Virus record (IMG/VR): IMGVR_UViG_2529292873_000015
Length of the DNA stretch: 4,155 bases
Direction: 5' to 3' (one strand)
Source of the DNA: a virus
Lineage: Duplodnaviria > Heunggongvirae > Uroviricota > Caudoviricetes
The position numbers were made by a program, and so were the translations under genes. How positions within the stretch are numbered: the stretch's first letter is position 1; every line of letters starts with the position of its first letter. A model generated the notes under the pieces. That model did no database searches. It was not told where the DNA came from and worked only from the letters and a program-made list of their open reading frames with translations. Below, one piece after another: positions 1 through 4,155 of this stretch.

Positions 1-71
1 GCACCAATCCCGGCCACATAGGGAATGCCGTCTTCGTTTTTTGAACCTTCAGCATGTACAGCGCAGCCAGG
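1..71 (-). pseudogene. In-frame continuation of gpJ-like coding sequence downstream of the tandem stop (orphaned C-terminal J segment, runs off the window start)
   Basis: Minus-strand translation in the same frame as J, directly after TGA-TGA, reads PGCAVHAEGSKNEDGIPYVAGIG with no further stop to position 1. This aligns with the lambda gpJ segment ...[21 protein letters not shown] at the expected position. There is no in-frame ATG with an SD in this stretch to restart translation. Confidence 0.45.
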
Positions 72-74
72 TCA

Positions 75-2726
75 TCATTTGTGTCCTTCTGCACGCGCTG
101 TATCTGCTGAATGGTTGGCGCTCTGGTCTTCCAGCGTTTTACTGACCGTCTGTGTGATTTCATTGCGGGTTTCCGTGATGCTGGTCTTCATCTCCGCCAT
201 CTCATCTGCAAGCTGGCTGTTATCTATCAGTTCCCACACCCCCTGAGCCAGATGCAGTTTTCCTATTTTTTCCCGAAACAGCCCCAGATACCCTTCTGCA
301 TCATTGCTGGCCCGGCCACTGGCTTCCACAAAAGCAGATTTCCCCACCAGGTTGACGCTGCGCACGTAAAACCAGAAATCCTTCCCGGGCTTAATGTGCG
401 GGCCGGATACACTCCAGTACAGCCCCGTGCCAAGGTAGCGGGCTGTGGTTTCAACCTGCCTGATATCGGTAATCCGCGTTTCCGAAAACCAGAACTCAAA
501 CTGTACCGTCGGGTCATACACCGCAAGACGCGGGACCGCTGTTATCTGAAAATAGCCCGGTGTCAGCTCAATCTGTGACGGCGCTGCCGGTGCGGCAATC
601 CGGAACGATACCGACGCCGGATCGCCCTGCTGCCCCCACGCATTTACCGCCCGGACTGTCAGCCTGTAGTTCCCCGGCGCCAGTTGCGTGAAGCGGTATG
701 TGGTTTCCGTCGTCCGGGCCGTGCTGACCAGCCGCTCACTGCCGTCATCCGCGGCCACGGTCAGGCGAAGCATAAAGCTCACGCCCTTCACCACCTTCGG
801 CGTGTCCCATTTCGCCTGCGCCAGATACTGACCGTCAGCTGCGCTCACCTCCACCGTCAGGTGCTGCACTGCCGGAGGGATGACGCTGTTCAGGGTGCCT
901 GACTGCGGCTCAAAGCGGGCACCGTTATCCACGATGGCTTCTTTTTCCGGTACGTGCTGCACCGCCGTGATGGCAAAGGTGCCGTCCGTGTTTTCCCGGA
1001 CGGAGACACAGCGGAACAGGCGACGGCGCAGTGACGGCAGGGATAGTCCCCATACACCGTATGTCTCCACACCATCAGGCAGGGTGCTGACCTGTATCCG
1101 GTCCGGCGCGGGGTGTGCGGTGATGTCCACACTCACCGGCTTACCGCTGCCGTTAATCAGGTTCACCGTGGCGGCACCTGTCTCCGGCAGGGTCACCTCA
1201 CGGTCCAGCGTCAGGGTGCGGCTGGCGGCATCGATGGACAGGACACGTCCGCCGGTCATGGTCCCGGCATAGTCGTTATCACAGATTTCAATAATGTCAC
1301 CGGGTGTGTGACGCAGCCCCTGTGACCCGAGCGTGAAATCCACCGTCTGCGTTTCCAGCAGTCCGGTCTTTATCACCCACAGCCCGGCACGGTGGGCCTG
1401 ACCGCGACTGGTGCAGCCGAACGCATCCATCTTCAGCAGGTTGCGCCCGTAGCGCAGTATGGCTTCCGGGTCTTCCACCAGTTCCGTGGAAGTCTGCCAG
1501 CCGTTCTGCGGGTCGGTGTAATTCACCTCCACCGCCGTGTGGCGGTCCTTCAGGGCGCTGAAGCTGTAGCGGAACCCCACGCCGTTATCATCCACCACCA
1601 CATCGCTGTTGGTGTACGGCCACACCACATCCGACGGGCGGTCCTGAACGAACGTCAGCGTCTGGCCGTTCCATACCGGCATACAGCGCATCGCCGAGCA
1701 GAAATCACTGAGCACATCCCATGCCTTACGCTGTTGTGACAGGTACGCATTAAAGGTCATCCGCGGCTCGGTCCCCCCGAAACCATCCGGCACCGTCTGG
1801 TCGCAGTACTGCGCAATGGCATACAGCGCCCACTTGTCCACATCCGCCGCCCCCAGACGTTTTCCCATTCCGTAGCGCGGGTGGGTCAGCATGTCCCACA
1901 GGCACCAGGCCGGGTTATTGCTGTATGCCGGTTTCAGGCTGCCGTCCCAGATACCGCTGTAAGTGCGTTTTTCCGGGTCATAGTTTGACGGTACCTGAAT
2001 GATGCGACCGCGGATATGGTAGTTCACCGTCATCTGCTGGCCACCAAACTGCTCCGCATCCACCTGCAGCCCCACAATCGCCGTGTTCGGGTAGCACTGT
2101 TTCACATCGATGATTTCGGTGTATGACGACCACAGCGTCTTATTCTGCAGCTGGTCCGTGGTGCTGTCCGCCGTCTCCCTGACCATCCGGATGTTAAAGG
2201 GGCGGGGAGGCAGATTATCCAGAATCACCGACGCCAGGTACTGTGAGGTGGTCTTGCCGTTAATGGTGACATCCTTTTCCGTCACCCAGTTACCGTTACG
2301 CTGCAACTGAATCAGCAGTCGGACAGAAGAGGGATTACGGTCGCCCTTTGAGGTGGTCTCCAACAGTGACTGCACCCCGAAGGTGACCCGCAGGCGGTCA
2401 ATGTTCGCGGATGTAATGGTGCGCGTCACCGGCTTTGCCTTCGTCACTTCCACGCCCAGTGCGGTTTCAGCTCCGGAAGACTCAAAGCCTTCAGGTGGTG
2501 TCTGCTCCTGCTCCCCGGCGCGCCAGACCGCTGTCACACCATGTATCACAGGATTACCGTCCGTGTCCGTCAGCGGGGTTTTGTTCACCAGGATACTCTG
2601 CAACCCCTTCACCGGACCTTCAATCGGCCCTTCACCAATGGCATCAATCACGCTCATCATCTGCGTGGACTTAAGATTGTCCTTTGCCTCAACCGGCGTG
2701 TGCGCCCTGCCGCCACCTTTACCCAT
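75..2726 (-). CDS. J: Phage host specificity protein J (lambda gpJ-like tail tip / central tail fibre); 883-aa ORF ending at a tandem stop, shorter than full-length gpJ
   Basis: The 883-aa minus-strand ORF begins [39 protein letters not shown], which is collinear with the lambda gpJ N-terminus as I recall it ([39 protein letters not shown]). Similarity continues through blocks such as [85 protein letters not shown] and [48 protein letters not shown] at 2724..2726 (minus) is preceded by an SD-like GAGAGGA. The ORF ends at TGA 75..77 followed by a second in-frame TGA at 72..74. Confidence 0.9.
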
Positions 2727-2732
2727 AATGTT

Positions 2733-2738
2733 CCTCTC
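2733..2738 (-). promoter_or_regulatory. Shine-Dalgarno sequence for J
   Basis: The minus strand reads 5'-TTGAGAGGAACATT-ATG; the GAGG core lies about 6 nt upstream of the J start codon. Confidence 0.55.
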
Positions 2739-2850
2739 AATTGGTATTATTAATCGCAGTGATAGGATATTGCACAGCTATTGCGCGATATCATCAGAAC
2801 GCTGTTTGTTACCCTGTAACCAGCAAGCTCAGTCTGTTAACGGAATTAAT
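2739..2850 (+). promoter_or_regulatory. AT-rich intergenic region between the J start and sodC, expected to carry the sodC promoter; no confident -35/-10 pair identified
   Basis: This is a non-coding, AT-richer stretch immediately upstream of sodC, with several short palindromes (GTTAC-CCT-GTAAC at 2808..2820, GTTAAC at 2835..2840, GATATC at 2787..2792). Candidate hexamers such as TTGCAC at 2770..2775 and TATCAT at 2789..2794 have non-canonical spacing, so the promoter position is unresolved. Confidence 0.3.
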
Positions 2851-2855
2851 GAGGG
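2851..2855 (+). promoter_or_regulatory. Shine-Dalgarno sequence for sodC
   Basis: GAGGG lies 4 nt upstream of the ATG at 2860 (sequence tgagggttttATG). Confidence 0.5.
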
Positions 2856-2859
2856 TTTT

Positions 2860-3387
2860 ATGAAATGTAAAATCATTGCTGCCATTGCCATGCTGACAGC
2901 AGCATCATGCGGATACGCAGCAGAACAGGAAGTCCCAATGAACCTTGTCAGTGCTGACGGAAAAGAAGTCAGCATTGGAAAAATAACCATTCAGGAGACC
3001 CCCTACGGTCTGCTGTTCACACCAGCCCTTCACTCTCTGTCTGAAGGCATTCATGGTTTTCATGTGCACGAAAAAGGAAATTGCGCCCCGGCACTGAAAG
3101 ACGGAAAACCGGTCGCAGCATTATCGGCTGGCGGTCACTTTGACCCGAAAAACACCGGCAAACATCTTGGCCCCTGGTCTCCGGATGGACACCTGGGCGA
3201 CCTCCCTGCGCTGTTCGTGACGCATGACGGAAAAGCGAACTACCCGGTCCTGGCCCCGAGACTGAACTCATTAAAAGAGATTAAAGGGCGTTCTCTCATG
3301 CTTCATGCTGGCGGTGATAACCATCATGACCATCCGGAGCCCCTGGGCGGTGGTGGTGCGAGAATGGCCTGCGGCATCATTCAATAA
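2860..3387 (+). CDS. sodC: Periplasmic Cu/Zn superoxide dismutase (SodC family), prophage-encoded moron
   Basis: The 175-aa product is [30 protein letters not shown]... It has an N-terminal signal peptide and Cu/Zn-SOD hallmark motifs: GFHVHE (Cu-binding His pair), GGHFDP, KHLGPW...GHLGDLP (Zn/bridging ligands), [21 protein letters not shown], and the disulfide Cys pair (GNCAPA / MACG). It closely resembles E. coli SodC and Salmonella SodCI as I recall them. It is the downstream part of the 344-aa track ORF 2353..3387; the start is placed at 2860 on homology, the signal peptide and the SD. Stop is TAA at 3385..3387. Confidence 0.93.
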
Positions 3388-3393
3388 TCAGTC

Positions 3394-3424
3394 AGGTAAG
3401 GGGCGGGCCCCTTACCTTTATTCC
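3394..3424 (+). terminator. Rho-independent terminator of sodC
   Basis: A perfect 10-bp stem, AGGTAAGGGG (3394..3403) paired with CCCCTTACCT (3408..3417), encloses a 4-nt loop (CGGG) and is followed by TTTATTCC, 7 nt after the sodC stop codon. Confidence 0.7.
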
Positions 3425-3534
3425 TCAGGACGATAAATCCTTTCTCCCTGAAAAGAACGGCACATCCTCCCTCTCTGAGTTAATGTTTTTGTCGTGACAT
3501 AAGAATAATTCCTTACACTCAATCTTCGTAACGC

Positions 3535-3573
3535 TCCCGCAGTTCCTGTCCGTGAGCACTGCGGGATTTTTTC
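3535..3573 (+). terminator. Candidate second plus-strand intrinsic terminator (hairpin plus T6 tract) abutting the stop codon of I
   Basis: A 9-bp stem, TCCCGCAGT (3535..3543) paired with ACTGCGGGA (3558..3566), is followed immediately by TTTTTTCGCTTTT. The loop is long (14 nt), which lowers confidence. The T tract is on the plus strand only. Confidence 0.4.
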
Positions 3574-3577
3574 GCTT

Positions 3578-4155
3578 TTATGCCTGCCGCCCGATAACCA
3601 CCACCTTCCCGTCACCGCCTTCATCACGGGTACTGATGTCCCGGGAGATTCGCCGGGAGCCAACCAGCATTTCACCGTAAGGCACCGGCATCGGGTTCCC
3701 CTGGGCAATCATGTTATCCAGCGAGGAAAAGTACGTGTTCTGTCTGCCGTTATCCGTTGCGCGGTAATCCGGTGTTTTTGCCTTCGGGGCCAGCATCTGG
3801 GCCACACCACCCAGTATCATGCTGGCACCCAGTGAAAACAGCATCGTGGTGGCAGAAAAACCGCCGGCACTCAGCGCTGCACCCCAGGCTGCCATCGATG
3901 CTCCGGCCGTGAAGAAAGAGCCCACGATGGCTGCCGCCCCCAGCACAATCTGCAGTCCACCCTTTCCGGCCCCGGCCAGTCGCGGCACAATATGGATGAC
4001 CGCCCCCTCACCCAGAGGTTCGTGAAGACGGGCGTACACCGCCTCCGGTGCCGTGTCCTCACCGCGAATACGTATCTGGTACCAGCCTTCGTTCATCTGA
4101 CGGCGGAATCCCGGCACCTGTAACGACAGCGCCCGGATGGCTTCCGCTGCCGTGT
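3578..4155 (-). CDS. I: Phage tail assembly protein I (lambda gpI-like), 3' portion; 5' end lies beyond the window
   Basis: Minus-strand translation reads ...TAAEAIRALSLQVPGFRRQMNEGWYQIRIRGEDT...AVIHIVPRLAGAGKGGLQIVLGAAAIVGSFFTAGASMAAWGAALSAGG...LGASMILGGVAQMLAPKAKTP...DNGRQNTYFSSLDNMIAQGNPMPVPYGEMLVGSRRISRDISTRDEGGDGKVVVIGRQA*. This is collinear with recalled lambda gpI (...GAEAIRALATQLPAFRQKLSDGWYQVRIAGRDV...QNTYFSSLDNMVAQGN...VVVIGR). The frame is open to the window end at 4155; the track start at 4117 is an internal GTG, not the true start. Stop is TAA at 3578..3580. Confidence 0.88.
   Translation of the reverse strand, partial: TAAEAIRALSLQVPGFRRQMNEGWYQIRIRGEDTAPEAVYARLHEPLGEGAVIHIVPRLAGAGKGGLQIVLGAAAIVGSFFTAGASMAAWGAALSAGGFSATTMLFSLGASMILGGVAQMLAPKAKTPDYRATDNGRQNTYFSSLDNMIAQGNPMPVPYGEMLVGSRRISRDISTRDEGGDGKVVVIGRQA

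Follow-up and report, generated by a model that had tools for sequence, protein, structure and literature searches.

Tandem stop codons in a prophage J gene at a draft contig end: two opposite single-base indels and a probable sequencing artefact

The tandem in-frame TGA-TGA that ends the J reading frame in a 4,155-bp stretch of prophage DNA, referred to here as the window, is most likely not a real feature of the gene. Two single-base indels of opposite sign lie within the last 116 bases of the contig. The first shifts the J frame and exposes the two stops, the second shifts it back, and both are private to the AETZ assembly. As judged from comparison with intact J genes, the interruption probably stems from wrongly called homopolymer lengths, at a contig end of low quality that falls within a multi-copy prophage repeat. 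The main value of this case is as a caution: apparent truncation by adjacent stops, in a repeated prophage gene where a short draft contig ends, is no ground for calling a pseudogene or for inferring prophage decay. The J gene underneath is ordinary, and its family is very well known.

Contig and gene layout

The window is the whole contig AETZ01000028.1 (GCA_000187325.3) in reverse complement, and hence the window edge at base 1 is the contig end, with nothing beyond it within the record. AETZ00000000 is the draft genome (2011) of the sorbitol-fermenting E. coli O157:H- strain H 2687, which belongs to a common clonal complex, A4, together with strain 493-89 (PMC3271280). The 3' part of the tail assembly gene I, sodC and an 883-codon J ORF are found on the contig (Table 1). 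The exact 883-residue J product is recorded for AETZ01000028.1 only. Outside the terminal 116 bases, the remaining 4,039 nt of the contig are free of frame-breaking indels, and J, sodC and I are all open there.

Table 1 Features of the window and of the related J segments (positions refer to the window unless a contig is named)
Feature	Position	Strand	Basis or remark
J ORF, lambda-type tail tip/host-specificity gene, 883 codons	2726..75	-	ORF list
J, authentic N-terminal 870 codons, from the start codon (2726..2724) to the insertion site	117..2726	-	ORF, Pfam and repaired translation
Tail assembly gene I (gpI), 3' part	3578 to >4155	-	ORF
sodC, Cu/Zn superoxide dismutase	2860..3387	+	ORF between I and J
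+1 indel	115..116		Plus strand TT vs T in aligned intact J; minus strand GCCAACC vs GCCACC; shifts the J frame
Off-frame J stretch, 28 codons counting the indel-bearing ones	35..114	-	Three-frame and repaired translation
TGA TGA, off-frame reading of A-AAT-GAT-GAC	72..77	-	Alignment with intact J genes
-1 indel	33..34		Plus strand TT vs TTT in aligned intact J; minus strand ACGAAGAC vs ACGAAAGAC; restores the J frame
True J frame resumed, DGIPYVAGIG (899-908 in the 1158-residue relatives)	1..32	-	Contig ends here
A6 to A5 deletion, contig L046	~1007	+	Same J segment
A6 to A5 deletion, contig L049	~3798	+	Same J segment
A6 to A5 deletion, contig L060	~1735	-	Same J segment

J as a member of the lambda gpJ family

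The 883-residue product contains the Pfam domains FNIII-A_GpJ, Phage-tail_3, Ig_J and Ig_J_second. Removal of one T at 115-116 and addition of one T at 33-34 produce an open J frame of 908 codons. This repaired product is identical to a 1158-residue E. coli gpJ at 886 of 908 residues (97.6%), and to lambda gpJ at 659 of 880 aligned residues (75%). J is placed in the tail module 3' of K and I and 5' of lom and stf: gpI is encoded on the same strand in the window, and the lom/stf side is read from the closest relatives and from lambda. The tail order in the closest relatives is K-I-(sodC)-J-lom-stf, and that of lambda is alike except for the added sodC. By domain content, identity and synteny, the J gene is assigned to the lambda gpJ family as an ordinary member.

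The Pfam set and the tail gene order are the same as those of lambda gpJ and of the 1158-residue O157/O55 homologues (WP_000515116.1 and WP_171877887.1). However, the deposited J frame is broken at codon 871 by the +1/-1 indel pair, and the last ~250 codons present in the 1158-residue homologues, including the receptor-binding region, are off this contig. The initial annotation had described roughly the C-terminal quarter of gpJ as missing. It is true that ~250 C-terminal residues are absent in comparison with the 1158-residue relatives, but their absence is due to the end of the contig at base 1 and not to a demonstrated deletion.

Two opposite indels and the origin of the stops

Translation of the minus strand of 137..1 confirms that the J ORF ends with TGA (77..75) followed immediately by a second TGA (74..72), corresponding to the plus-strand stretch 72..77. 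It also bears out the initial observation that the frame stays open past the stops to the window edge, with J homology resuming in frame. The stretch from the stops to base 1 reads PGCAVHAEGSKNEDGIPYVAGIG, in which only the final 10 residues, DGIPYVAGIG, are authentic J in frame; PGCAVHAEGSKNE and the 13 residues that end the 883-residue ORF are off-frame translation. DGIPYVAGIG corresponds to residues 872-881 of lambda gpJ, and a longer match of 11 residues covers 871-881. The match to lambda gpJ and its length of 1132 residues, as given in the initial annotation, are both right.

When window 1-200 is aligned with intact J genes, there are exactly two length differences, one 1-nt insertion and one 1-nt deletion. 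Both fall in T runs on the plus strand, are opposite in sign and lie 81 nt apart. The TGATGA bases themselves are unchanged relative to the intact 1158-residue J. The initial annotation had proposed such an alignment as a way to identify the ancestral codons at 72..77, and these are AAT-GAT-GAC (Asn-Asp-Asp, 79..71). Thus, the single +1 insertion at 115-116 exposes both stops at once, and J homology resumes in frame downstream because the -1 deletion at 33-34 cancels the insertion. It had been regarded as curious that two adjacent stops cannot arise from one substitution. The puzzle disappears, because no substitution is needed at all.

The initial annotation had explained the stops by nonsense substitutions that inactivated a tail fibre gene in a decaying prophage. 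Apart from the presence of the stops, nothing points to such substitutions. The bases at 72..77 and at least 30 nt on each side of them are identical to those of intact J genes, and an insertion upstream is what brings the stops into frame. No sense codon has been converted to a stop by substitution; the frame differs and the bases do not. A nonsense-mutated pseudogene is therefore extremely improbable and has been rejected.

Public gene calls include a fragment of 31 residues at window 94..1 on the minus strand, with a GTG start at 94..92. This fragment follows the true J frame within the shifted stretch and leaves it past the deletion at 33-34.

Relatives and rarity of the indel alleles

The closest relatives among complete genomes are prophages of O55:H7 and O157:H7 strains, which are 95-97.5% identical across the whole window. 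In these relatives, gpJ is encoded by one unbroken ORF of 1157-1158 codons that runs through the indel and stop sites. The complete genome of 493/89, a sister strain labelled O157:H7, contains an intact J that matches window 1-200 with 100% identity once the two indels are set aside. Window 1-180 has 2,976 matches, spread over 742 of the 5,426 complete E. coli genomes searched, with a median of 4 copies and up to 9 copies per matching genome. The best of these matches is 98.9% identical. This is the value expected for a sequence lacking both indels, and hence neither indel occurs in that background in the 5,426 complete E. coli genomes.

Scans for exact 26-nt words carrying either indel, together with a 33-nt insertion word in the GTDB representative genomes, found no match to the insertion allele in IMG/VR, the GTDB representative genomes or the JGI metagenomes. 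The deletion allele likewise had no match to its 26-nt word in IMG/VR, the GTDB representative genomes and the JGI metagenomes. The wild-type alleles are present in IMG/VR on 54 contigs at the insertion site and on 71 contigs at the deletion site.

Since the J frame recovers past the stops, a pair of ribosomal shifts might in principle reconstitute J, and programmed frameshifting or stop readthrough would then yield a full-length protein. However, the ORF runs through the site without a break in every related J gene examined, the 84-nt spacing is the same in 48 of the 51 retrieved J segments, and the indel alleles have been found on this contig only. Moreover, if ribosomes did no more than read through the stops, the protein would still contain 26 off-frame residues. 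No slippery heptamer was seen by inspection at GCC-AAC-CAT. An interrupted frame conserved among relatives, as would mark a programmed frameshift or readthrough site, was not found. The initial annotation had ranked readthrough as less likely, in agreement with the uninterrupted ORFs of every relative examined, and the probability of programmed recoding is considered negligible. A naturally split J gene is ruled out because the relatives have one continuous ORF.

A different 1-base deletion, from A6 to A5, is present in the same J segment of three IMG/VR contigs (Table 1). It frameshifts J in L046 and L049, the two contigs that were translated. These deletions may reflect real decay or homopolymer errors alike.

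Probable sequencing error and a less likely genuine frameshift

The initial annotation had regarded a sequencing artefact as a less likely alternative. This ranking is now reversed: because the two indels are private, lie in the terminal 116 nt of the contig and interrupt a sequence otherwise identical to an intact J, an artefact best accounts for the interruption. Each indel makes a single-base run longer or shorter by one base (T to TT and TTT to TT), and both are located where assembly quality is lowest, at most 116 nt from a contig end and within a multi-copy J gene. The chance that two random indels would both fall within 116 nt of one given end is small (P ~8e-4). Draft assemblies of O157-group strains typically break inside near-identical lambdoid prophages (PMC7175801).

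The contig stops inside J, of which the lambdoid prophages in strains of this kind contain several near-identical copies. Two runs within the last 116 bases of the contig would have been miscalled: a single T at 115-116 as TT, and TTT at 33-34 as TT. The first miscall would shift the J frame by +1, so that AAT-GAT-GAC is read as A-TGA-TGA-C, and the second miscall, 81 nt on, would shift the frame back. The underlying J is most likely an ordinary, intact gene of ~1158 codons, the 3' quarter of which would be on another contig.

The characteristic error of pyrosequencing is a wrong homopolymer length, with long runs being favoured, and such errors in drafts of the pyrosequencing era create false frameshifts and false pseudogenes. 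The six drafts of Rump et al. 2011 were reportedly obtained by Roche 454 pyrosequencing, and the H 2687 (AETZ) draft belongs to this set. The two indels resemble known homopolymer errors in drafts in that they are one-base changes in run length at a contig end, within a multi-copy repeat and in one assembly only. They differ from the typical case in the shortness of the runs, one of 1 base and the other of 3 bases. The A6 run adjoining the indels (minus strand CAAAAAACG) is correct, while the 1-mer and the 3-mer differ, which counts against a homopolymer miscall.

The same shortness of the runs, being less typical of homopolymer errors, would fit a genuine frameshift. In that case, a real +1 insertion in J of the sodC-linked prophage of H 2687 would truncate the protein at 883 residues, of which 870 are authentic and 13 off-frame. 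The receptor-binding C-terminus would be lost, leaving the prophage without adsorbing particles. The gene would already be dead, and the -1 deletion 81 nt further along would add a lesion of no functional consequence. The tandem stops are present in the deposited sequence, one-base deletions occur in the same J segment of other contigs, and defective lambdoid prophages are common in O157-lineage strains, in which prophage J genes can be genuinely defective. If the indels were real, the outcome would be the same as that of defective O157 lambdoid prophages with frameshifted tail genes, namely a truncated J and non-adsorbing particles.

However, real decay of such prophages usually brings substitutions, IS insertions or deletions, whereas there are only two opposite 1-base indels here, at a contig edge. 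Gradual decay would not leave two opposite indels 81 nt apart in a 200-nt stretch that shows no substitution when compared with an intact 493/89 J. Neither indel allele has been seen elsewhere, whether in complete E. coli genomes, IMG/VR, the GTDB representatives or the JGI metagenomes. Because the contig boundary is defined by the assembly, a real mutation would have no reason to track it and to fall at most 116 nt from it, whereas errors concentrate there. In addition, selection for a compensating second indel is implausible because the shifted stretch holds two stop codons. A genuine frameshift in H 2687 is therefore regarded as unlikely. Even if real, it would add one more defective prophage of the O157 lineage, which is also well known.

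Possible mosaic structure of J

The window was compared with the J paralogues of 493/89 to see whether the contig could be a chimera of them. Positions 1900-3800 are identical to the sodC prophage of this sister strain, and positions 1-400 are identical to another of its prophages. Window 400-800 matches neither of the two 493/89 J copies examined, with 25-35 differences per 100 bases from both. When window 181-900 was searched against the 5,426 complete E. coli genomes, no match above 95.7% was found. The sequence at 181-900, especially at 401-800, would stem from natural mosaicism of J, or else paralogous copies would have been collapsed into a consensus in the draft assembly.

If both indels were real, a single event between the paralogous J copies of a poly-lysogen could have produced them, for example template switching or gene conversion with misalignment. 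The tail tip of the sodC/tccP prophage in H 2687 would then be inactivated, and the virulence cargo of this prophage would be trapped in the chromosome. Such an event is considered very improbable, and homopolymer-length errors remain the preferred explanation for the two indels.

sodC and associated prophage genes

sodC is inserted between I and J, is encoded on the strand opposite to these two tail genes, and resembles a typical prophage cargo ('moron') gene. It is followed on its own strand by two terminator-like hairpins, at 3394-3417 and 3549-3575. Its counterpart is annotated as WP_000649829.1 in three relatives, which are O55:H7-like and O157:H7 strains. In two of these three sodC-bearing relatives (L001 and L006), espJ and a tccP/EspF-repeat gene are also carried on the prophage.
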